Shown: piece after piece, positions 19,546-32,317 of the stretch
How positions within the stretch are numbered: position 1 is the stretch's first letter
Layout: each line of letters starts with the position of its first letter
Origin: Candidatus Gottesmanbacteria bacterium RIFCSPLOWO2_01_FULL_43_11b
GTDB taxonomy: Bacteria > Patescibacteriota > Microgenomatia > UBA10105 > UBA927
DNA length: 64,000 nt
Reading direction: 5' to 3'
Assembly (NCBI GenBank): GCA_001780985.1
Contig: MFJV01000001.1
Span: forward strand, 629,466-693,465
Position numbers and translations under genes: made by a program
The notes under the pieces: generated by a model
The model's database searches: none
The model's input: only the letters and a program-made list of their open reading frames with translations
Told to the model about the DNA's origin: nothing

Positions 19546-19821
19546 TTATTGTGTTTTTTGTAATTCAAGCGAGAGCTGTCTGATTTCTGAATGAATTTTA
19601 TCTGCAAGGTGAGGAATTCTTTTATATGCAAAATCAAAGAAGAGTTTTGGATCATTTTTTTTGACAACCTCTTTGAACGCAAAAACATCTTCTTTTCCCA
19701 GGTTTTTGAGGATCATAGTTTTTATGCGAAGCAAGACAACTCTATTGATGGTTTCAAAAATTTTGTCTTCACTTACATCTGTGACCTTCGCGCTCCCATA
19801 CAAAACGGTGTTAATTTTCAT
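19546..19821 (-). CDS. Hypothetical small protein (91 aa)
   Basis: ORF lies 4 nt upstream of the 543-aa gene and downstream of the XRE regulator, same strand. No recognisable motif. Confidence 0.35.
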   Translation of the reverse strand: MKINTVLYGSAKVTDVSEDKIFETINRVVLLRIKTMILKNLGKEDVFAFKEVVKKNDPKLFFDFAYKRIPHLADKIHSEIRQLSLELQKTQ

Positions 19822-19912
19822 GTTTTTAACCTCTTAAACAGGACATGAAAAGATAATACCATATTTTGTTAGGTTTGTAACTATAGGCTATCTATCTTTC
19901 GGAAGTGAGAGC

Positions 19913-20191
19913 TCAAGGGAGTGGTGACAAGGATATGGATACTTTGGTACCGAAAACTTTTGCCAAGCGTTTGAGAAATGAGAGGGATGGAACTGTTTTG
20001 GCGTTCTCCAGCCGAGAAATGACCGACTGGCGGGTTTTTAGCCGTTGCGCAAGTTGTTTTTGGGTAAGTTTATGTTTGATGCGCTTTGTGATTACTTCGC
20101 GGGCAATACGATATTCCAGCGCAGAGTCACGAAGTGCGGCGCGGAATGCGGAATCTTTAAGAAGTTGTTTTTTGTGTGTTGCCCAGTTCAT
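19913..20191 (-). CDS. XRE-family helix-turn-helix transcriptional regulator
   Basis: LTQKQLAQRLKTRQSVISRLENAKTVPSLSFLKRLAKVFG is a canonical HTH_XRE. Start chosen at MNWATHKK. Confidence 0.65.
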   Translation of the reverse strand: MNWATHKKQLLKDSAFRAALRDSALEYRIAREVITKRIKHKLTQKQLAQRLKTRQSVISRLENAKTVPSLSFLKRLAKVFGTKVSISLSPLP

Positions 20192-20284
20192 AAAAACTCC
20201 TTTTGGTTTTAAAATATCACAATATTGCGATATCGTCAAGACTCCGTTTTATAGTATTCAATTTTCCAATTTTGAGCCATATTA

Positions 20285-20593
20285 TTATCGCTTCCTTAAA
20301 GACAGCTCAAGAGAAATGAGGGAGGCGAGAAGAAGGACGATATAGATCGGATGATGAAGGTCGAGGTATCGGAGAATGAGAAAGATGGTAAGAGTGAAAG
20401 ATAGTAAGAGAGAAAGACGGGTGTTGTTTAAAATAAAAAAAGACAGGAAGAGAGAAGACAGGAAGACGGTAAGATAAAAGACGATAAGATACACTAATTT
20501 GTCAGGGGGAAATGAATTTATAAACCAGGCAAGCGTGACGAAACCAAAAACTCCGAGAATAAGATGCGTAATGTTTCGATCTTTCCGTCTCAT
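20285..20593 (-). CDS. Small integral membrane protein, hypothetical
   Basis: About 102 aa, 3 TM helices. Start overlaps the stop of the DUF2207 gene. Confidence 0.35.
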   Translation of the reverse strand: MRRKDRNITHLILGVFGFVTLAWFINSFPPDKLVYLIVFYLTVFLSSLFLSFFILNNTRLSLLLSFTLTIFLILRYLDLHHPIYIVLLLASLISLELSLRKR

Positions 20594-20594
20594 A

Positions 20595-22226
20595 TTACCA
20601 ACTTCCCCCTCCGCCGCCACCCCCACCTCCACCGGAAGATCCGCCAGAAAAACCCGATGAAAAGCCAGACGAAGATCGGGTCGGAGTGGCAGCTGATCGA
20701 ACAGCAGAAAGTGAGGAGTTGAGAGAATTCACAAATACAGAACTATTGAATGTTCCGTAACTGGTTGAAGAATACCAATCGATAGGCTGCATTGCGATAT
20801 CTTCGAATCGTTTTGCCCAAATTCGTTCGACATTGAATGCAATTGCATAGGGGAGTAGTTTTTCAAACATGAGTTGATTTTTTGCCTGATGAGTTAGTTT
20901 CTTTTCCTGGCTAACCAGAAAGTTTCGCAAGGACCGGGCGACAGCAGCCTGTTGACTTCCGTATGGAGTTTTAACCGGCATCCCCGTTCCGAAAATAAGA
21001 CTACTCAAAAAGAGAGGAACATTAAATGTCATGAGAGACAGGACGCGGATAATTTCGTAAAACGAACGGATTTTTTGCGGATTTTTCGGGAAAAATCCTT
21101 CAGTAACAAAACTTTCATACAAACTCTCTTTTATTTTTTCTATATCTGAAGCAAGTTTTAATTCTTTGACATGAACAATATCGGTGGTAAATATTTTTTC
21201 CAGAAGAAGTGACTCAAAAGGCATTAAAGATGAATCATTTTTAAATTCTTTTTGTTTTGAAAGAGTGAAATCATTCTTTTTATTTTCAATAATCTTGAGA
21301 TACTCCCGTCGGGCAAGGTCGACAATAGTTGCACAGATGTCATCAAGATCGACGCGCTCGTCGATCAATGCACCGGTTTCTCCTGGGGTAAGCGACCGCA
21401 AAGACCGGGTTTTAGGTGCGTCAAACCAGGCTTTGGTTTCTCCTATTGCCGGTCGTGGATCACGGCCATACTTCCACCATTTGATAGGAAGAGAGATGGG
21501 GTAGACGATGTACCACAATGACGCTACGAGAATGCCCAATCCGGTAAGTAATGGTGAGGGGCCGTATGGTTTTGGTTCGAGGACTGCTACAATTCCTTTT
21601 GGAAAACCAACGACAATCGTTAACCCTTCATCGGGAGATAATGCGGCATTGGTAGATACGTGAACTTGCGCATCACGTGTCGTGACATCGCAGTTTTGTG
21701 CTGTATTTCCGATAGGACCAGTGAAGCATTCTGCTCGGATATCTTGTTTTAGTATATCTTCCGGTAGATTAATAGTTACACCTGCAGCATTTATTGATAC
21801 AGGCCAGTCATTGCCCGTAACGTTCCAATAGAGTTCATCGTGGTCAGAAAAATAGGTTAGAGCTCCGATAACCGTATAGCCAATTGTGTACGAATGAGTT
21901 CCCGTAATAGTTTTATTCGGATCGCCAATTTTGAGTGTCATTGATGAGTCTTCAAACGATTTCGAAAATTGATCGGATACTGAAATATTTGTAAAATCGA
22001 GTTTAAATTTCTTGTTGTCTTGATTTGTTTTTACAAACGGAATGGTTCGGAATATTCCATGCCGACTTTCTTGTCCAAAATCGTAATCAATTGTTTCAGA
22101 AACATCGATTAATCCGTTGGCCTCTATTGTTATGTTGGTATCAAACGACTGAATCTCTTCAGCAAGACTAATGCGAGGATAGAAAAAGGGGAAGAGGAGA
22201 AGCATGATGACGAAATACCATTTCAT
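20595..22226 (-). CDS. DUF2207-family membrane protein with signal peptide and C-terminal Gly-rich tail
   Basis: Signal-like MKWYFVIMLLLFPFFYPRISLA; DUF2207-like TIDYDFGQESRHGIFRTIP; TM helices mid-protein; C-terminal GGSSGGGGGGGGGGSW. Confidence 0.5.
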   Translation of the reverse strand: MKWYFVIMLLLFPFFYPRISLAEEIQSFDTNITIEANGLIDVSETIDYDFGQESRHGIFRTIPFVKTNQDNKKFKLDFTNISVSDQFSKSFEDSSMTLKIGDPNKTITGTHSYTIGYTVIGALTYFSDHDELYWNVTGNDWPVSINAAGVTINLPEDILKQDIRAECFTGPIGNTAQNCDVTTRDAQVHVSTNAALSPDEGLTIVVGFPKGIVAVLEPKPYGPSPLLTGLGILVASLWYIVYPISLPIKWWKYGRDPRPAIGETKAWFDAPKTRSLRSLTPGETGALIDERVDLDDICATIVDLARREYLKIIENKKNDFTLSKQKEFKNDSSLMPFESLLLEKIFTTDIVHVKELKLASDIEKIKESLYESFVTEGFFPKNPQKIRSFYEIIRVLSLMTFNVPLFLSSLIFGTGMPVKTPYGSQQAAVARSLRNFLVSQEKKLTHQAKNQLMFEKLLPYAIAFNVERIWAKRFEDIAMQPIDWYSSTSYGTFNSSVFVNSLNSSLSAVRSAATPTRSSSGFSSGFSGGSSGGGGGGGGGGSW

Positions 22227-25486: not shown

Positions 25487-27565
25487 CTAAATTTTTTGTG
25501 CAGAGATAGTGACAGATATATTGTTTCGATTTATAGGGAGTCGATTGGGGAATACTGCCCACCGAAAACGAAATTCGGCTCCTGCAACACCTCCTGTTGT
25601 CTTTAAGTATTCCTGCGCTTTCGTGACGCTTTTACCGGCAACTCCCTTTCGAATAGCATCACTATCTAAAGAGGGGAGCGCTGATCCGCGGACATGAGTT
25701 GTCACAGTAGTAGTTCCGTCCTTTTTTACCTGTACTCCCTTCACCTCTATGTCCGTACTGTTATTATCAAAAGCATACCCCGGCATAAGTTGTGATGAGA
25801 CCCGATCGGTAAATAACGCTACAACATCCGTTTCGCTGTAGGAAATTCCTGAAACGGTAATTGTAATTTTGCCGGCTAACTCTTTTGCCTCCTGATCCAA
25901 CTCCTGTGTAAATGTTTTTTCTGTCACCGATGTTTTGAGAGTCGCATCAATCAGTTTTTCACCTCCTGAAATACTTGTTGCCAATTTTTCTTTTGTTTGT
26001 TGAAGTAACTCCTCGGTAAGTTGGGTAACGAGTGCATCGTAGTCACTTCGTGTGACGACTGTTACTTCACGGCTTGTACCTCCGGCAAACTTCTCGTCGT
26101 TTCGTGCAATCGCAATACTTGTTCCAATTTCCGAAAATGTGAAATCAGTTCCGGCAGGAAGATTTCCTTCCGGACCAATTTCTTTCGCCGTAACGCTACC
26201 CGTTGCTTTTCCAAAAGTAATGGATCCTATACTTTCAGCAGCTTCGACAACCTCGACGTCTGCATCAAGTGTAAATTGTATTCCTGAAGCAGCAAGGATA
26301 GAGCCTTTTTTAAATGTTCTGCTGTTTAAACTTTTGTTATAAATCGTTATACCACCTTTAGCCGGATCACCGATTTTCTTTGTTCCGGAAACCGGAATTG
26401 TTTTTTCTCCCGACAATGAATCTTCACGAGTATGTCCCGGAATAATACTTGTTTGACTGTCTGCGACCGTCGATTTTGGATCAACCGTCATTGGCAATGT
26501 TGTTTCAAGTGTTTGGGGGAGAACAAGAACGGTAACCGTTGCTTTAGGCAGTATCCAAACGAACAAACCTAAAATAATTAAAAGAAGAATTCCCGTGAGC
26601 CCAATATACATTCCGTTACCTTGGATAGGGAATGAGGGAAGGGATGGAAGTTTTGGCAATGAAAATTTTTGCTTTGGTTTTTCTTCTGGCTGCGTTCTTT
26701 CCAGAACGTCTTCATTTGCAAACCCAAGAGTTTCCGGTTCAACAATCTCAATGTTTTGCTGCGACTCCCGCGGTTCGGGTTTAGTTTCGACCGGCTCCTC
26801 CCGGAGAGCTGTTGTCATTTCACTTGCACCCGCAAGAGATACGGATTCTACGATGGAACTAATTGGTATATGGTCGAACTTCGGAAAGTGAAGGAAATTT
26901 GCTTTTGTCGGCCAGGGGTGACGCATTAAATCAGCTTTATTTTCTTCAATAAGATCATCGGAGGCACCATAGAGGATTATACGAGAAGGCAATACCTCAA
27001 GTTCTTTAAATTGTTTCAACACGTGTTCAATTGAGGTTGGAAGATTATCACCGCGATCAATAGTCTCTTGTCCTATAAGCAGGCCGACCTTATACACAGA
27101 AATAACGACACGATGATCACTAAATCCTAAAAGAATAACACTTGGCGGGACTCCTTCCGTTTTTTTCAACGAATACACAATTGCCGCCGGTACAGAGACA
27201 AATCCCATGGGTGTAAGATCCAGGACCTGTGTGAGTTGTTTCATCTGGGTTCGAACGTCGGGGTTAATATCGCCGTCATTGGTTAAATATTCAATAGGTA
27301 AACCCAGCACGACTTTCCGGATTTGTGCATTTTCATCAAGTTTTTCCTCAAGCGCTGCAATGGTACGATCAGCAGCTTTTGTTCTGTCTTCCCAATTGTC
27401 GTTCTCTAAGGTTTCGCGTGAGAATCCAATCGCAATAGGATTATTTGAAGCGTCCATATGCCAGCCGGCAGCGATAACACCGTCCGGCAAGAGAATGAGG
27501 GAGAGAAAGACTTCAGTCACCTGTTTTGGTCGAAAGAGACTCTGGATTGGGTTTGGAAGTTTCAT
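25487..27565 (-). CDS. Hypothetical bitopic membrane protein: about 300-aa cytoplasmic N-domain, one TM, about 350-aa T/S-rich extracellular C-domain
   Basis: 692 aa; TM IGLTGILLLIILGLFVWILP; no LPXTG. The N-domain may be actin-like/FtsA-PilM-like (very weak). Directly upstream of the sortase gene. Confidence 0.35.
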   Translation of the reverse strand: MKLPNPIQSLFRPKQVTEVFLSLILLPDGVIAAGWHMDASNNPIAIGFSRETLENDNWEDRTKAADRTIAALEEKLDENAQIRKVVLGLPIEYLTNDGDINPDVRTQMKQLTQVLDLTPMGFVSVPAAIVYSLKKTEGVPPSVILLGFSDHRVVISVYKVGLLIGQETIDRGDNLPTSIEHVLKQFKELEVLPSRIILYGASDDLIEENKADLMRHPWPTKANFLHFPKFDHIPISSIVESVSLAGASEMTTALREEPVETKPEPRESQQNIEIVEPETLGFANEDVLERTQPEEKPKQKFSLPKLPSLPSFPIQGNGMYIGLTGILLLIILGLFVWILPKATVTVLVLPQTLETTLPMTVDPKSTVADSQTSIIPGHTREDSLSGEKTIPVSGTKKIGDPAKGGITIYNKSLNSRTFKKGSILAASGIQFTLDADVEVVEAAESIGSITFGKATGSVTAKEIGPEGNLPAGTDFTFSEIGTSIAIARNDEKFAGGTSREVTVVTRSDYDALVTQLTEELLQQTKEKLATSISGGEKLIDATLKTSVTEKTFTQELDQEAKELAGKITITVSGISYSETDVVALFTDRVSSQLMPGYAFDNNSTDIEVKGVQVKKDGTTTVTTHVRGSALPSLDSDAIRKGVAGKSVTKAQEYLKTTGGVAGAEFRFRWAVFPNRLPINRNNISVTISAQKI

Positions 27566-29273
27566 CGGTGGATATCCCGGCGTAGATCCGTCGAATACCT
27601 GCGCCAGCAGATTCCTCTTTCATTATTGTAAAGCGCCCTATGGCACCTGTAAAGGAAACGTGAGGACCCCCGCAGAATTCCGCAGAAAAATACTCCTCCT
27701 TCGGCCCGCCTGCCGGCGAGGCAGGTCCGACAAAGTAGACACTAACCCGATCCGGGTACTTATGGCCAAACTCCATTTGTGCGCCTATTTTTTCTGCTTC
27801 TTCACGTGTCATTTCCACTCGGCTTACTTTTAAATTTTCTTTTATTTTTTCATTGACTAATGTTTCAATTTTCTTTATTTCTTCTGGAGTGAGTTTTCTT
27901 TCAAAATTGAAATCCATACGCAGACGTTCTGCAGTGATATTGCTTCCGCGCTGTTTTATGCTCGGATCGACGATCTTTTGAAGGGAAGCAAGAAGGAGGT
28001 GATGGGTGGTGTGAAGTTTTACTGTCTGTTCACTTTGGTCAGCAAGCCCGCCCTTAAACATTCCAGCAGCCGCCGTTCGCGAAAGATTTTGATGGGTTTT
28101 GAATTTTTCTTCAAAGTCATACTTATCAAAATTCAATCCTTTTTGTTTAAAAAGCTCTTGAATGATTTCAGGTGGAAATCCATACGTTTGAAAAAGGTCA
28201 AACGGGGGAACGTTTCCGACCATTTTCATTCCTTTTTCAAGAACGGCATCAAACCTAGTCAGTTCATCTGAAAATATTTTTGAGATCTGCTCTGATGAAG
28301 GCAAACCGTAAAACTGAATGAACTCGTTTAGCACTTGTAATGTAGCCTTGGAATGAACTGCTGCACGTCGAATTAACCTCCGTAAAATATATCCCTGCGT
28401 TTTGTTTGAGGGGAGGACGCCTGCGTCGATGATAAACATCGCAGCCCGAACATGATCCAAAACTACCCGAACGTTTTTCTTGTCTTCTTTCAGAAGTTTC
28501 TTTGCGCCGAAAAAAATATCAATATTAAATACATCCGGATCATTGTTTGTTGCTGCTGTTAATCGTTCCAATCCGCCGCCGAAATCCACATTTTTATTCG
28601 GTAATTCAACAATACTTCCGTCCTTCTGTTTCTGATATTGCATGAAAACGGAATTTGCGATTTCCAAAAATCTTCCGCAATTACAGTTTGGGTGACACCC
28701 ATCATGTATCGGTTTTTCGAAATCAAAAAATACTTCACTATCCGGTCCTCCGGGTTCACCCGCCGGCATCTTGTCAGGCTCTCCGGACCTACTCCACCAG
28801 TTCTTATCGACTCCGTAATAAAATAATCGACTATCCGGAATGCCTAATTTTTTCCAAATACCCGCAGACTCTTCATCTTTAGGAACGTCTTTATTTCCCT
28901 CAAAAACAGATACATATAGTTTTTCTTTTGGAAGATGTAATTCTTTTGTCAGAAATTCCCAAATCCATGGAAGCTGTTCTTTTTTGAAATAATCACCGAA
29001 CGACCAATTTCCAAGCATTTCAAAAAACGTGGTGTGTCGATTGTCACCGACTTCTTCAATATCACCTGCTCGAAATGATTTTTGACTGTTCACCAGCCGT
29101 TTTCCTAATGGATGCGACTCTCCCAGGAGGTAGGGGACGAGCGGCTGCATACCGGAACTCGTAAAAAGGGTAGTAGAGTCATTCTCAGGAACCAGTGGAG
29201 CAGACGGAATCTCCACATGCCCCCTTGCCTTAAAAAACTCAATGTATTTTCGTCGGACATCAGAAGATTTCAT
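27513..29273 (-). CDS. alaS: Alanyl-tRNA synthetase (short form lacking the C-terminal C-Ala domain)
   Basis: MKSSDVRRKYIEFFKARGHVEIPSAPLVPENDSTTLFTSSGMQ (class II AlaRS N-terminus); editing-domain Zn motif FCGGPHV near the C-terminus; 586 aa. Confidence 0.8.
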   Translation of the reverse strand: MKSSDVRRKYIEFFKARGHVEIPSAPLVPENDSTTLFTSSGMQPLVPYLLGESHPLGKRLVNSQKSFRAGDIEEVGDNRHTTFFEMLGNWSFGDYFKKEQLPWIWEFLTKELHLPKEKLYVSVFEGNKDVPKDEESAGIWKKLGIPDSRLFYYGVDKNWWSRSGEPDKMPAGEPGGPDSEVFFDFEKPIHDGCHPNCNCGRFLEIANSVFMQYQKQKDGSIVELPNKNVDFGGGLERLTAATNNDPDVFNIDIFFGAKKLLKEDKKNVRVVLDHVRAAMFIIDAGVLPSNKTQGYILRRLIRRAAVHSKATLQVLNEFIQFYGLPSSEQISKIFSDELTRFDAVLEKGMKMVGNVPPFDLFQTYGFPPEIIQELFKQKGLNFDKYDFEEKFKTHQNLSRTAAAGMFKGGLADQSEQTVKLHTTHHLLLASLQKIVDPSIKQRGSNITAERLRMDFNFERKLTPEEIKKIETLVNEKIKENLKVSRVEMTREEAEKIGAQMEFGHKYPDRVSVYFVGPASPAGGPKEEYFSAEFCGGPHVSFTGAIGRFTIMKEESAGAGIRRIYAGISTDETSKPNPESLSTKTGD

Positions 29274-29313
29274 GATTACGTATTATAAACGAGATAGAGG
29301 AAAGAAGTAATAG

Positions 29314-29343
29314 ATGTTACCATGTTTCGAAACATGGTAACAT
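29314..29343. promoter_or_regulatory. Perfect 30-bp palindrome, candidate operator for the adjacent TrpR-like regulator (or bidirectional terminator)
   Basis: ATGTTACCATGTTTCGAAACATGGTAACAT is its own reverse complement. Located between the regulator stop (29357) and the alaS start (29273). Confidence 0.5.
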
Positions 29344-29356
29344 ATTTCTAGCTATG

Positions 29357-29800
29357 CTAGAAAGGTTTTTGATTTGCGATTCTTGCTTCCCAACGACGTT
29401 TTCTCCAACCCCGTAAATCTCGTCCAAACTGAGGAAGCATATTTGCTAATGCGGCGTCGATTTTTTCAATGAGAGCTTTTAGTTCCTCTTTTCGTAAGAT
29501 CGATCCGATGACAGACTGATAGCCTCCGTGACCTTTTTGCAATACGAGACTGATTTTACTCACTGTCCCTAGGCTTACTTTAAGCCATCGAGAAATAGTT
29601 CTCTGATCATATTTTTTGAGAAGAAGAAGGGCAATCGACAATCGTTTAGCAATCATCAGTCGTTCGGTTGGAGAAAGGAGATCATCAAGGAGTCTTGATA
29701 CAGTGCTTTTTGATGTTGCCGCCGCCACACTTTCCATCAACACTTCGTATACTCGTTGTTCTACCTCTTTTCGTAGTGGAATTCTCGATACTTGTGTCAT
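29357..29800 (-). CDS. TrpR-like (YerC/YecD family) DNA-binding protein
   Basis: LSPTERLMIAKRLSIALLLLKKYDQRTISRWLKVSLGTVSKI is a TrpR/YerC-type HTH; 147 aa. Confidence 0.55.
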   Translation of the reverse strand: MTQVSRIPLRKEVEQRVYEVLMESVAAATSKSTVSRLLDDLLSPTERLMIAKRLSIALLLLKKYDQRTISRWLKVSLGTVSKISLVLQKGHGGYQSVIGSILRKEELKALIEKIDAALANMLPQFGRDLRGWRKRRWEARIANQKPF

Positions 29801-29806
29801 ACTTCT

Positions 29807-29836
29807 ATGTTACCATGTTTCGAAACAAGATAACAT
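29807..29836. promoter_or_regulatory. Imperfect copy (28/30) of the 30-bp palindrome in the divergent promoter region
   Basis: ATGTTACCATGTTTCGAAACAAGATAACAT. Sits 7 nt upstream of the TrpR-like start codon and upstream of the divergent plus-strand operon. Confidence 0.5.
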
Positions 29837-29876
29837 AATCTTTTTTGCGCATTTTAAGTCATCTTTAAGTATAATG

Positions 29877-30086
29877 AGGGATATGAATTGGTGCTTTGCA
29901 ATTATTAACAATAAACTGGCTGAGGTTTATTTCAAAAGAAAAGGAACAAACGTAACGTTCATTGGACATTGCTATGTTGATGCAGCGGAATATAAAACTC
30001 AGAGTGAACAAAAGGCAATAAAGGAAGATATCACAAAAGTAAGATTAAGGTATAGTAAAGGAAAGTATAATCCAATAAAACATTAA
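29877..30086 (+). CDS. Hypothetical small protein (about 69 aa), first gene of plus-strand operon
   Basis: MRDMNWCFAIINNKLAEVYFKRKGTNVTFIGHCYVDAAEYK...; stop lies 2 nt before the cupin start. The upstream part of the long ORF 29616..30086 is antisense to the regulator and rejected. Confidence 0.3.
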   Translation, partial: RDMNWCFAIINNKLAEVYFKRKGTNVTFIGHCYVDAAEYKTQSEQKAIKEDITKVRLRYSKGKYNPIKH

Positions 30087-30088
30087 AT

Positions 30089-30427
30089 ATGCAAATCGTA
30101 AAGAAGAATCAAGCAAATCAAGTCAATGCCTCTTTCTCTACAGCAATTTATGAATATCTCATGGACAATGAGGACATAAGTGGTGCTATTGCAGATATAA
30201 ACGGGAGATATCCGGAAAAAGGATTTGTGAGAAACGAAGTGTTTAAAGAGTTGGTGTATGTGCTTTCTGGAACAGGGAAAGTAGAAGTAGACGGAAAAGA
30301 ATTTCGATTCTCTCAAGGAGATACTCTCCTTATCCTTCCGGGCGAAAAGTACTTCTGGGAAGGAAATTTTCGTATATTTATGGCCACCGCACCCAAATTT
30401 GATCCAAATCGCCATAAAATAATATGA
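30089..30427 (+). CDS. Cupin-2 domain protein
   Basis: GTGKVEVDGKEFRFSQGDTLLILPGEKYFWEG is a cupin beta-barrel motif; 112 aa. Confidence 0.55.
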   Translation: MQIVKKNQANQVNASFSTAIYEYLMDNEDISGAIADINGRYPEKGFVRNEVFKELVYVLSGTGKVEVDGKEFRFSQGDTLLILPGEKYFWEGNFRIFMATAPKFDPNRHKII

Positions 30428-31386
30428 AATTATGGCTTGATAGACCGGATATCAAAGGGTCATTAAAAGACTTTCTTCGATTGGTTACAGAAGAATTTCA
30501 ACTAGGAACAATTCAAAAGTTTTCGAGATTCCCGATTGGTTATCAAGAGTTAAACATCAAACTGCATACATCGCAGGGAATCTTCGTCGTCAAAATTTTC
30601 TCCAGGGAAAAATCTTTATCCCGCGTGAAGGAAAATGTCGAAGGCTATATTGAATTTGCAAAACTTGGTGTTCCGACACCGAAACTTCGAGTGACTAAAG
30701 ATAATGAATATATTTTCCTTACAAAAGGAAAAACTCAAGAAGTCTACACCTGTGTCATGGAATTTTTTAAGGGTAAATCATTCCTTAAACTTCCGATTAA
30801 AAATCAAGATATTATGACAATTAGCCGCTTTATGGCACTCATGCATCGATCAGCACTTAAGCCTGCGCATTATAACGACACGTTGGGGATTGTAAATTTT
30901 AAAGACGTGTTCGATAAACAAGAAAATATATTGCCACAAGATGAAAGAAAAGAAATGAGACAAATTCTTGAAGAGTTCCAGGTAATTAATTTTTCAAAAT
31001 TTCATCACAGCGTTATTCATGGAACACTCGAACGAGAGAATGTTTTGAAGGATATGCATGGAAATTACTGTGTTCTCGATTTGGGGTGCATGGACTATAA
31101 TGCTTCTGTTATTGATACAGCGACATTTCTGGCAAATTTTACGATTGACATGGGTTTAGAAGAAACTGTGTTAGCTATTAAGGATGTAGTTGAAGAATAT
31201 AAAAAGTTTCATTATTTTTCTAGAGAGGAACAAAGAGTGTTGCCTGTTTTAGTCAAAACACAATACGCTATTCTGGTTATCGGAATGACGCATGCCATCA
31301 AAGCCGAGAATGATACGAGCAGGCAAACAAGAAATTGGTTAGAATTTGGTAAAGCCGGGTTAAAAAAATTTCAAAAGATACGTTAA
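30424..31386 (+). CDS. Aminoglycoside phosphotransferase / choline kinase-like (protein-kinase-like fold) protein with atypical catalytic loop
   Basis: VVKIF (beta3 Lys), HGTLERENVL in place of HGDxxxxN, and DLG metal-binding motif VLDLGCMDY. Overlaps neighbours by 4 nt. Confidence 0.5.
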   Translation: MKLWLDRPDIKGSLKDFLRLVTEEFQLGTIQKFSRFPIGYQELNIKLHTSQGIFVVKIFSREKSLSRVKENVEGYIEFAKLGVPTPKLRVTKDNEYIFLTKGKTQEVYTCVMEFFKGKSFLKLPIKNQDIMTISRFMALMHRSALKPAHYNDTLGIVNFKDVFDKQENILPQDERKEMRQILEEFQVINFSKFHHSVIHGTLERENVLKDMHGNYCVLDLGCMDYNASVIDTATFLANFTIDMGLEETVLAIKDVVEEYKKFHYFSREEQRVLPVLVKTQYAILVIGMTHAIKAENDTSRQTRNWLEFGKAGLKKFQKIR

Positions 31387-31389
31387 TTT

Positions 31390-31998
31390 TTGATATACTC
31401 TCAAACCATGTTGCCCTCATATTTCGTAATTGCTGCAGTTATTATTGGATCGGTAGGCGGCTTGTGGTATCTCATTAGTACGATCAGAGGGAATGTCAAA
31501 CCGAATCGCGTTTCGTTTCTTCTCTGGTCAATTCCTCCGCTCATTGCCTTTGCAGCTGAAATTCAAAAGGGAGTAGGGATACAGTCGCTTATGACATTCA
31601 TTGTCGGATTTATTCCACTCATGATATTTTTAGCATCCTTTGTAAATAAAAAAGCAGAATGGAAATTAACGAAATTTGATTTTTTGTGCGGCGCATTTTC
31701 CTTACTTGGTCTTATTCTTTGGTTTGTAACAAAAGAAGGAAATATCGCAATTTTACTAAGCATAGCAGCAGATGGCTTGGCTGCGGTGCCCACGATAGTG
31801 AAAGCCTATCGTTATCCCGAAACAGAAATTGCCTGGCCGTGGCTCGCTGACTCAATAAATGGCTTGCTCACCCTTCTAACAGTTACAGATTGGACACTCG
31901 CGTATTACGGTTTTCCTTTATATGTTTTCTTCGCCAATCTTATTATTTATGTCTTTTCTCAGTTTAACATTGGGAAAAAGTTTGCTGCTTATGTCTAA
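31390..31998 (+). CDS. Hypothetical integral membrane protein (about 6 TM)
   Basis: 202 aa, hydrophobic throughout, no motif recognised. Confidence 0.4.
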   Translation: MIYSQTMLPSYFVIAAVIIGSVGGLWYLISTIRGNVKPNRVSFLLWSIPPLIAFAAEIQKGVGIQSLMTFIVGFIPLMIFLASFVNKKAEWKLTKFDFLCGAFSLLGLILWFVTKEGNIAILLSIAADGLAAVPTIVKAYRYPETEIAWPWLADSINGLLTLLTVTDWTLAYYGFPLYVFFANLIIYVFSQFNIGKKFAAYV

Positions 31999-32317
31999 TA
32001 TAATTCTCGTTTATATAACCTGCGAAGACAGAGAGGAGGCGGAGAGGATTGGGAGAGAGCTTCTCAAAAAGCGACTGGTGGCATGTGTCAACATTATTAA
32101 TAATGTTCACTCGATGTATCTATGGCCGCCTAAGAAGGGAAGAATTGAAGAAGCAAATGAGGTAATACTCCTTTGTAAGACGCTTGAGTCAAAATGGAAG
32201 AAAGTCGAAAAAGAAGTTACTAAAATTCACTCCTACTCAACCCCCGAAATCGCTGCAATTCCTTTTATACACATGAATAAAAAATATTCCGATTGGCTCA
32301 AAGAAGAACTTATTTAA
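31994..32317 (+). CDS. cutA: CutA1 divalent-cation tolerance protein
   Basis: ILVYITCEDREEAERIGRELLKKRLVACVNIINNVHSMYLWPPKKGRIEEANEVILLCKT is the CutA1 family core. Confidence 0.65.
   Translation, partial: SNIILVYITCEDREEAERIGRELLKKRLVACVNIINNVHSMYLWPPKKGRIEEANEVILLCKTLESKWKKVEKEVTKIHSYSTPEIAAIPFIHMNKKYSDWLKEELI

Follow-up and report, generated by a model that had tools for sequence, protein, structure and literature searches.

A long-form TrpR/YerC-type regulator of Patescibacteria and the two palindromes that bracket its gene

Repressors of the TrpR family recognize palindromic operators of about 18–20 bp, which are bound by one dimer or by tandem dimers, and they need an amino-acid corepressor for DNA binding. 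The trpR gene itself has a single operator upstream and is not known to have one 3′ of the gene. Here we describe a TrpR-like regulator encoded in a 64-kb stretch of DNA (64,000 nucleotides, referred to as the window; positions 629,466 to 693,465 of contig MFJV01000001.1) from Candidatus Gottesmanbacteria bacterium RIFCSPLOWO2_01_FULL_43_11b, the gene of which lies between two copies of a 30-bp palindrome, one upstream of it (U) and one downstream (D). This uncultured inhabitant of groundwater belongs to the Patescibacteria, also known as the candidate phyla radiation (CPR), and as these organisms, with their tiny genomes, have few transcription factors and lack a genetic system, almost nothing is, to our knowledge, known about their gene regulation. 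On the comparisons set out below we consider it fairly probable that the regulator is a long-form autoregulated repressor with a gene bracketed by two operators of four half-sites each, and that it has a small dispersed regulon.

The closest described proteins, both by profile (E = 1e-10 to 7e-8) and by fold, are those of the HisR/YerC-YecD group (3frw, 3kor, 3g1c), with which the regulator shares a GxxGY motif after the helix-turn-helix (HTH). The sites of HisR in Firmicutes are 20 bp long, cacTTTA-N6-TAAAgtg, and the protein frequently regulates its own gene (PMC9413887). The operators are in both cases palindromic and lineage-specific and often lie 5′ of the gene for their own regulator, and one operator type found in Patescibacteria (CACTTTA...TAAAGTG) has the same outer arms as that of HisR, placed 8 bp further apart. 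The regulator differs from HisR/YerC-YecD in being about 45 residues longer at the C-terminus (the family has about 100 aa), in an operator of 28–30 bp with four half-sites against one of 20 bp, and in the presence of a second operator after the stop codon. No his operon was found in any of the loci, and one PRA-CH (HisI) gene adjoins a site. With the Escherichia coli Trp repressor (1TRR; operators at trpEDCBA, aroH and trpR) the regulator has in common the fold and an operator over its own promoter, but it falls far under the TrpR equivalog cut-off and has no trp genes nearby. The tandem dimers of E. coli TrpR are set in an 8-bp register (for background see PMC9413887), which matches the 8-bp offset that we find within the palindrome of the regulator. 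For YerC or TrpR in CPR, the literature yielded HisR work in Firmicutes only, and nothing on this branch of the family or on the bracketed layout.

The bracketed regulator and its palindromes

The regulator matches the Pfam family Trp_repressor (PF01371) with 49 bits against a cut-off of 27 over residues 19–98, and its AlphaFold2 (AF2) model (pLDDT 81.5) has the TrpR fold at residues 1–103, followed by two extra C-terminal helices at residues 106–121 and 129–143. An earlier first-pass annotation of this DNA, made from the sequence alone, had called the protein TrpR-like, and the Pfam match and the fold bear this out. The top Foldseek matches are 3kor, 3frw and 3g1c, followed by E. coli TrpR, with 1TRR among the fold matches; the best 41 matches in the Protein Data Bank (PDB) are all YerC-type or TrpR, with target-normalised TM-scores of 0.7–0.84, and the profile match to 3frw has an E-value of 1e-10. 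According to AF2 and Foldseek it is an all-helical HTH protein without a catalytic domain. It stays under the NCBIfam equivalog cut-offs both for TrpR (TIGR01321; 24.1 vs 67.25 bits) and for YerC/YecD (HisR) (TIGR02531; 23.6 vs 42.2 bits). At E ≤ 1e-10 its profile retrieves 907 clusters at 50% identity, with lengths that are mostly 140–152 aa; the sequence itself is identical to that of a deposited "uncultured bacterium ACD_36" protein, and its relatives are named as Gottesmanbacteria or Patescibacteria. Judged by sequence and predicted fold, the regulator thus falls into a branch of the TrpR/YerC(HisR) repressors that has a long form and extends across the Patescibacteria. K52/R53 and T79 are invariant and lie in segments that line the TrpR pocket, which is suggestive at most. 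No relative of the regulator was found in viral contigs, and a phage origin is ruled out by their absence there.

Within the window, U and D are the only copies of the palindrome at up to three mismatches, and chance alone would give none. With a position weight matrix (PWM) derived from 115 related sites, D reaches 47 and U 45, and the next best position in the window −20. The first-pass annotation had reported a perfect 30-bp palindrome and a 28/30 copy on either side of the regulator gene, and the coordinates and uniqueness of both proved correct, as did the statement that they flank the gene; the spacings are each one nucleotide shorter than it gave, 13 nt and not 14 from the stop codon to D, and 6 nt and not 7 from U to the start codon. 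It had also named a common repeat unrelated to the locus as the contrary case, and within the 64 kb we find the two copies, no others and no weaker sites, which rules out a repeat that is spread through the window. Half-site-like matches at 20380–20407 lie within an open reading frame (ORF) and are at chance level.

The same layout is found in relatives. A scan with the regulator profile, taking one genome per species, gave 80 loci from Microgenomates, Parcubacteria and Saccharibacteria-like genomes, with the regulator gene callable in 79. Matching U and D palindromes of about 28–30 bp are present in 43 of these, whereas control windows from the same loci hold a palindrome of that quality in 21 of 1362 cases, and a relaxed matrix scan of further metagenome loci found a pair of U and D at nearly every regulator. 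The centre of U lies mostly 11–37 bp before the start codon and the centre of D mostly 11–30 bp after the stop codon, and the two are equal in quality (12.5/14 arm pairs each). The distance from U to D is 466–534 bp in 42 of the 43 loci and 573 bp in the remaining one, and tracks gene length. The neighbouring genes are not conserved, and those upstream and downstream occur in every orientation. On this comparative evidence, bracketing by U and D is a trait of the family that is independent of the neighbouring genes. The first-pass annotation had found the second copy beside alaS, the gene for alanine–tRNA ligase, unexpected; as related regulators in their hundreds, from across the Patescibacteria, are bracketed likewise, we see in it a hallmark of the family that is conserved with the regulator gene, and nothing peculiar to alaS.

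In short-form relatives, which have 104–109 aa and lack both C-terminal helices, the one palindrome is about 22 bp long and lies upstream, and a D copy is present in 0 of 11. In the sequences compared, the C-terminal extension is accompanied by both the longer operator and the D copy. The short-form loci (L200–L205, L070, L072 and L078) come from WWE3/Saccharibacteria-like genomes, and their palindrome reads ATGAATT-N8-AATTCAT. The gene directly 3′ of the short-form regulator is conserved, with a product of 352–375 aa and a weak LytR_C match in the five loci with Pfam data, and these regulators look like a separate orthologous group with a fixed target of their own.

The sequence of the palindrome goes with the protein. 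U and D from one locus agree on average at 25.4 of 30 positions, against 16.9 of 30 between loci, and paralogues in one genome differ in their type of palindrome, each having its own type at both ends (e.g. L032 and L038, which are on one contig). The type of operator follows the recognition helix: SLGTVSKVS, for example, is found with TGTTACCATGTTT, TPPTIASVS with CACTTAAATGATAT, and GLETVNKVNR with an operator that has a CTAG centre. As the palindrome varies with lineage, paralogue and recognition helix, we conclude that it is very probably the cognate operator of the regulator. The first-pass annotation had proposed an operator too, and is supported here by this covariation across lineages and paralogues and by the overlap with the promoter of the regulator.

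Each half of the palindrome has an internal order of its own. In the window it reads ATGTTAC-C-ATGTTTC, and across the sites the self-identity of the half-palindrome is 0.51 at an offset of 8 bp, as opposed to 0.22–0.38 at other offsets; when the outer 7-mer is compared with the copy 8 bp inward, the observed value is reached by 0 of 2000 permutations. We therefore read each half as two direct repeats of about 7 bp, which would give the operator four half-sites, probably for two overlapping dimers.

The position of U suggests how the regulator could act on its own gene. In many lineages an exact TTGACA lies 1–3 bp 5′ of U, with a −10-like hexamer inside the palindrome, and TTGACA with at most 1 mismatch is found 0–4 nt 5′ of U in 17 of 63 U sites but in 1 of 51 D sites; in most of the U sites that have it, the start codon is −2 to +7 nt past the palindrome. 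In the lineage of the window it is the two outer arms that look like −35 and −10 hexamers, (A/T)TGTTA-18 bp-TAACAT, with the ATG after 6 nt. Such short distances are seen elsewhere in the window, as TATAAT or TAGAAT ends 5–8 nt before the ATG, without a Shine-Dalgarno sequence, at eight genes, among them alaS and the small ORF divergent from the regulator. Since the −10 box is so close to the ATG and no Shine-Dalgarno sequence is present, leaderless transcripts are a reasonable inference, and by the same pattern many mRNAs of this genome would be leaderless. U would then cover a leaderless-type promoter of the regulator, in a geometry that is kept in relatives, and this implies autorepression; our confidence that U is a cognate operator through which the regulator is autoregulated is high on comparative grounds.

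The eight gene starts are 7037(+), 12956(−), 15180(−), 16007(−), 17879(−), 29273(−), 29883(+) and 46138(+), the last of which has the full pattern TTGACA-17-TATAAT-6-ATG. A clear AGGAGG is seen at few genes of the window only (49029, 57766).

The dispersed sites and the divergent operon

Metagenomes were scanned with the pattern GTTAYNNTGTTTYRAAACANNRTAAC, in which the centre dinucleotide was left free as Y-R, and at least 119 stretches matched. Among the matches listed, about one quarter of the sites flank homologues of the regulator, and at least 93 lie away from any regulator. When the placement of these regulator-free sites was counted after dereplication among the listed matches, 32 were between tandem genes, 12 between convergent genes, 6 between divergent genes and 13 inside a called ORF. 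Several have an ATG 0–15 nt or a TATAAT 11–12 nt past the palindrome, which fits promoter control. The genes beside sites encode Ham1, NTPase_I-T, NUDIX, HIT, PRA-CH, HAD and DHH/DHHA1 proteins and 5-FTHF cyclo-ligase, and furthermore GNAT proteins, serine hydrolases, an AAA_33 kinase, a low-molecular-weight (LMW) phosphatase, a CsoR-cupredoxin pair, and MFS and EamA transporters. One protein beside a site has no Pfam match, and its resemblance to MazG/HisE was seen by eye only. At position 8674 of L017 (Paceibacteria), a third copy of the palindrome type of the regulator there lies between two genes that, judged by eye from their translations, look like glyA and folD.

One of the genes that recur beside sites belongs to the operon that is divergent from the regulator in the window, and which encodes a small protein, a cupin, a kinase-like protein, a membrane protein and CutA1. 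The first-pass annotation took the regulator to be the local repressor of this operon, and the whole to be a self-contained module for the modification or export of a small molecule. The divergent arrangement in the window is in keeping with this, a cupin gene adjoins the regulator in L002, L083 and L187, and of all the genes in the operon that for the cupin is most consistently preceded by a palindrome in relatives (L083, L092, L096 and L187). The palindrome stands directly before the cupin gene in three of these loci: in L092 and L096 it is 27 nt from the gene with no regulator nearby, and in L187 the cupin gene has a separate site of its own. The comparative genomics of the operon that the first-pass annotation had called for thus brings out the cupin gene as a recurrent target, but synteny with the regulator is absent from most loci, including those of relatives with 77–80% identity (L001 and L004). 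The cupin/APH/membrane/CutA set stands beside the regulator in only a few close relatives, and its content and order vary, with cupin-small-cutA as the order in L096. Moreover, the edge of U is about 33 bp upstream of the −10 box of the operon, which places it outside the core promoter, and the regulator-free sites, at least 93 of them, lie beside many unrelated genes. A self-contained module is therefore in our view unlikely, and the comparison does not support it. As the palindrome also occurs at these regulator-free places, several of them directly before cupin genes, we favor a small dispersed regulon, in which the regulator would act at single palindromes scattered over the rest of the genome and in which the cupin operon, a plausible target from its sequence context, would be one recurrent member.

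The downstream copy and competing explanations

As alaS is co-directional with the regulator and downstream of it, the perfect copy of the palindrome falls into the spacer between the two genes, at about −70 to −41 relative to the alaS start; the first-pass annotation had it correctly between them, to which we add the direction of alaS. This raises the question of whether D is the operator of alaS, such that the regulator would control the expression of alanyl-tRNA synthetase. The order of regulator and then alaS recurs in L002, L077, L187 and L196 in addition to the window, and a palindrome is found about 40 nt before alaS in both the window and L077. However, in L002 and L187 the regulator and alaS are separated by an inserted gene, and in both loci the palindrome stays 13–30 bp past the stop codon of the regulator while alaS has no site. 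The distance from D to the next gene varies from 3 to 231 nt, in contrast to the tight distance from the stop codon to D, and the gene after D is convergent in about 20 loci and unrelated to alaS in dozens. In the window, D also ends 3 nt 5′ of the putative −35 region of alaS, outside its core promoter. As D is anchored to the stop codon of the regulator even where genes have been inserted before alaS, we assign it to the regulator, and control of alaS through D seems to us unlikely as well. The anchoring to the stop codon and the frequent convergent next gene also rule out, as a general rule, that D is the operator of whatever gene follows it. D as a promoter is ruled out by the near absence of TTGACA from the D sites noted above (1/51 vs 17/63).

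We suggest that D is part of the transcription unit of the regulator, and that it most likely serves as a second operator acting in cis. It may be that U and D cooperate, joined in a loop or clamp by the extra C-terminal helices, or alternatively D could be a protein roadblock that closes and insulates the regulator unit; as to the exact role, loop or roadblock, our confidence is low. Comparable arrangements are known from lambda cI, which sits between OR and OL, which loop, and from LacI, the tetramers of which are joined by a C-terminal helix. As with lambda cI, a repressor gene lies here between two sites for its own product, and as with LacI, additional C-terminal helices could join dimers. 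The family is nevertheless unrelated, the distance between U and D is set by the 444-bp gene, and the U–D spacings of the related loci show no helical phasing (Rayleigh p ~0.6).

Several points weigh against the reading of an autoregulated repressor with two operators and a dispersed regulon. The strict definition of matching U and D fails in 36 of the 79 loci, some of which are cut by contig ends. The lack of phasing gives a loop no support, even if loops of 480 bp are little phase-sensitive, and the comparison of short and long forms is one phylogenetic contrast. In the window, U and D lie upstream of the −35 regions of the predicted operon and alaS promoters. Among the regulator-free sites, at least 93 in the matches listed, about one quarter lie between convergent genes, and when the same spacers are used with uniform placement, 17 sites are next to a 3′ end only where 10.1 are expected, and 4 are next to a 5′ end only where 6.0 are expected; a pure promoter-operator model leaves this bias for gene ends unexplained. 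Finally, all of the support comes from comparative sequence analysis.

The excess at 3′ ends and the position of D at the stop codon together suggest that, besides controlling promoters, the palindrome may act at gene ends, for instance as roadblock or insulator. At least four regulator-free sites are wedged between two convergent stop codons. There are also runs of palindromes around other genes, which indicate that bracketing is not strictly limited to the regulator gene: a HAD pair is bracketed in L093 (5932–7618) and L176, an AAA_33 kinase in L012 (6414–7459), and four consecutive sites surround genes for a membrane protein, a Nudix protein, the regulator and an MFS protein in L016 (5456–7536). 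Taken to its end, this leads to the idea that the palindrome and the TrpR-like protein are a protein-dependent punctuation of a leaderless, mostly monocistronic genome: at gene ends the bound protein would close the unit, whether as roadblock terminator or as insulator, and it would also gate the promoter that comes next. In that case the bracketed regulator gene may be the founding example, and in a variant of the same idea a site that abuts the stop codon may stall RNA polymerase before the stop, leading to a non-stop mRNA and feedback after initiation. We regard punctuation of this general kind as rather improbable.

Still less probable, in our opinion, is that the palindromes are RNA hairpins, acting as intrinsic terminators or 3′ stabilisers behind the regulator gene and behind others, with protein binding as a secondary matter. 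As RNA the palindrome forms a 13-bp stem, and with the neighbouring hairpin at 29345–29363, which would make tandem hairpins on the regulator mRNA, the folding energy is −24 kcal/mol (z = −8); a consensus scan calls the palindrome terminator-like, and D and the regulator-free sites are near stop codons, with some of the latter between convergent genes. An intrinsic terminator, however, has a G+C-rich hairpin followed by a U-tract, whereas only 4 of the 13 pairs of the stem are G-C, and in the related loci D lacks a trailing T-run. In 113 of 115 distinct sites the two central bases are complementary to one another, for which a loop has no need, and mismatches of the G.U type on the sense strand at D are no more common than those of the A.C type (20 vs 22, p = 0.88). 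A search of Rfam over positions 29000–30200 gave no match. A terminator would furthermore have no reason to be alike at U and D of one locus and to change with the protein. The symmetry of the centre, the lack of an excess of wobble pairs, the missing T-run and the absence of an Rfam match point to a dyad protein site on double-stranded DNA and not to an RNA hairpin.

Lastly, the flanked gene recalls REP/RAYT systems, where REPs flank the gene for a Y1 (IS200/IS605-like) transposase and number hundreds per genome. The likeness lies in a single-copy gene flanked by a palindrome that is also dispersed in intergenic DNA, often at gene ends. That palindrome, gene and palindrome form a mobile or recombining cassette with REP-like or attC-like boundaries and the HTH protein as its partner would agree with a genomic context that varies even among close relatives, with the other bracketed genes (the HAD pair of L093 and L176, the four sites of L016 and the kinase of L012) and with the resemblance of L092 and L096 to a single-palindrome site where the window has a bracketed regulator, but we find it very improbable, given an all-helical 147-aa HTH protein without a catalytic domain and thus without a Y1 transposase domain, no linked recombinase, no relatives in viral contigs, a low apparent copy number (two in 64 kb, few extra copies in the 14-kb loci and, in related loci, one further site for every 80 kb or so), and a palindrome that overlaps promoter elements and covaries with the recognition helix of the HTH.

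The autoregulated, bracketed repressor that we favor would mean that the cognate operator of a large family of regulators, the 907 clusters, can be read from both ends of the gene. It yields predicted leaderless-type promoters and a first list of targets, consisting of nucleotide house-cleaning enzymes, phosphatases, transporters and the cupin operon, and in this way makes the reconstruction of a CPR regulon experimentally testable. A conserved second operator at the stop codon would be an unusual autoregulatory layout. For annotation, the lesson is that a copy beside alaS should not be read as regulation of alaS.

The kinase-like protein and other features of the window

The coordinates of the regulator, its palindromes and the neighbouring genes are collected in Table 1. 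The first-pass annotation had called a cupin, an APH-fold protein and CutA1, all of which Pfam confirms. Of the 4-nt overlaps that it described between successive genes, one stands, that between the cupin and the APH-fold gene (30424–30427); the membrane and CutA genes overlap by 8 nt, and the other two junctions are short gaps. The first ORF of the operon exists, at 67 or 70 aa and not the 69 aa given there, and has a tblastn match of 57% identity in L096, between the cupin and cutA. The CutA1 protein is under the NCBIfam equivalog cut-off (109 vs 120).

Table 1. Features around the regulator gene, with positions in the window
Feature	Position	Strand	Remarks
alaS	27513..29273	-	short-form alanine–tRNA ligase, 586 aa; NCBIfam NF002436, 600 bits
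alaS TATAAT box	29288-29283	-	8 nt before ATG, 26 nt from the edge of D
Operator D (putative)	29314..29343	.	ATGTTACCATGTTTCGAAACATGGTAACAT, perfect 30-bp palindrome; 13 nt past the regulator stop codon
Small inverted repeat	29345..29363	.	8-bp stem TTTCTAGC-TAT-GCTAGAAA; spans the regulator stop codon, adjoins D
Regulator	29357..29800	-	147 aa, long-form TrpR/YerC fold; Pfam PF01371, AF2, Foldseek, profile search
Operator U (putative)	29807..29836	.	28/30 copy (2 mismatches), 6 nt 5′ of the regulator ATG
Regulator −10-like hexamer TAACAT (predicted)	29807..29812	-	outer arm of U, then 6 nt, then ATG
Operon TATAAT box	29870..29875	+	7 nt before the small-ORF ATG; predicted operon promoter
Small ORF	29883..30086	+	67 aa (ATG 29883) or 70 aa (ATG 29874); no Pfam match
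Cupin	30089..30427	+	112 aa; Pfam Cupin_2/Cupin_3
APH/homoserine-kinase-fold protein	30424..31386	+	320 aa; Pfam APH, 34.4 bits vs 23.2
Polytopic membrane protein	31390..31998	+	202 aa (TTG 31390) or 196 aa (ATG 31408); no Pfam match
CutA1	31991..32317	+	108 aa; Pfam CutA1, 113.6 bits vs 22.4

The AF2 model of the kinase-like protein (pLDDT 90) resembles homoserine kinase 2ppq, the amicoumacin kinase AmiN and aminopropanol kinase. With the type II homoserine kinase 2ppq it shares the same fold (Foldseek TM-score 0.74, E = 1.5e-13), but it is far under the equivalog cut-offs (58 vs 271), and the HxD(x)4N loop of these enzymes is here without the catalytic Asp. In a profile alignment the HGT of the protein lines up with the HAD of 2ppq, hence the catalytic Asp is missing, while the Asp of DLG is kept; the substitution of HGT for HGD with DLG intact, as read in the first-pass annotation, is confirmed by this alignment. 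The replacement is general in its clade of APH-fold proteins of Patescibacteria (P0122–P0144). In an alignment of 17 members, T, S or A replaces the catalytic Asp in 15, and the two most distant keep HGD. Every member of the clade retains the Lys of the ATP site, the Asn of the catalytic loop and the metal-binding Asp of DLG, and a Glu two residues past the lost Asp is nearly invariant. That this Glu could be an alternative base is speculation from the alignment.

The small inverted repeat next to D was found in the locus of the window alone, and has GGTTTTTGA behind it on the plus strand. At its 3′ end, alaS overlaps the called start of the next ORF, of 692 aa (25487–27565), by 53 nt, and the true start of that ORF is therefore probably further downstream. 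Elsewhere in the window, at 19546–20632, a gap of 1 kb separates two 543-aa genes of identical length and holds small ORFs, among them one for an Xre-type HTH protein (19913–20239, minus strand) and one for a membrane protein of 115 aa.

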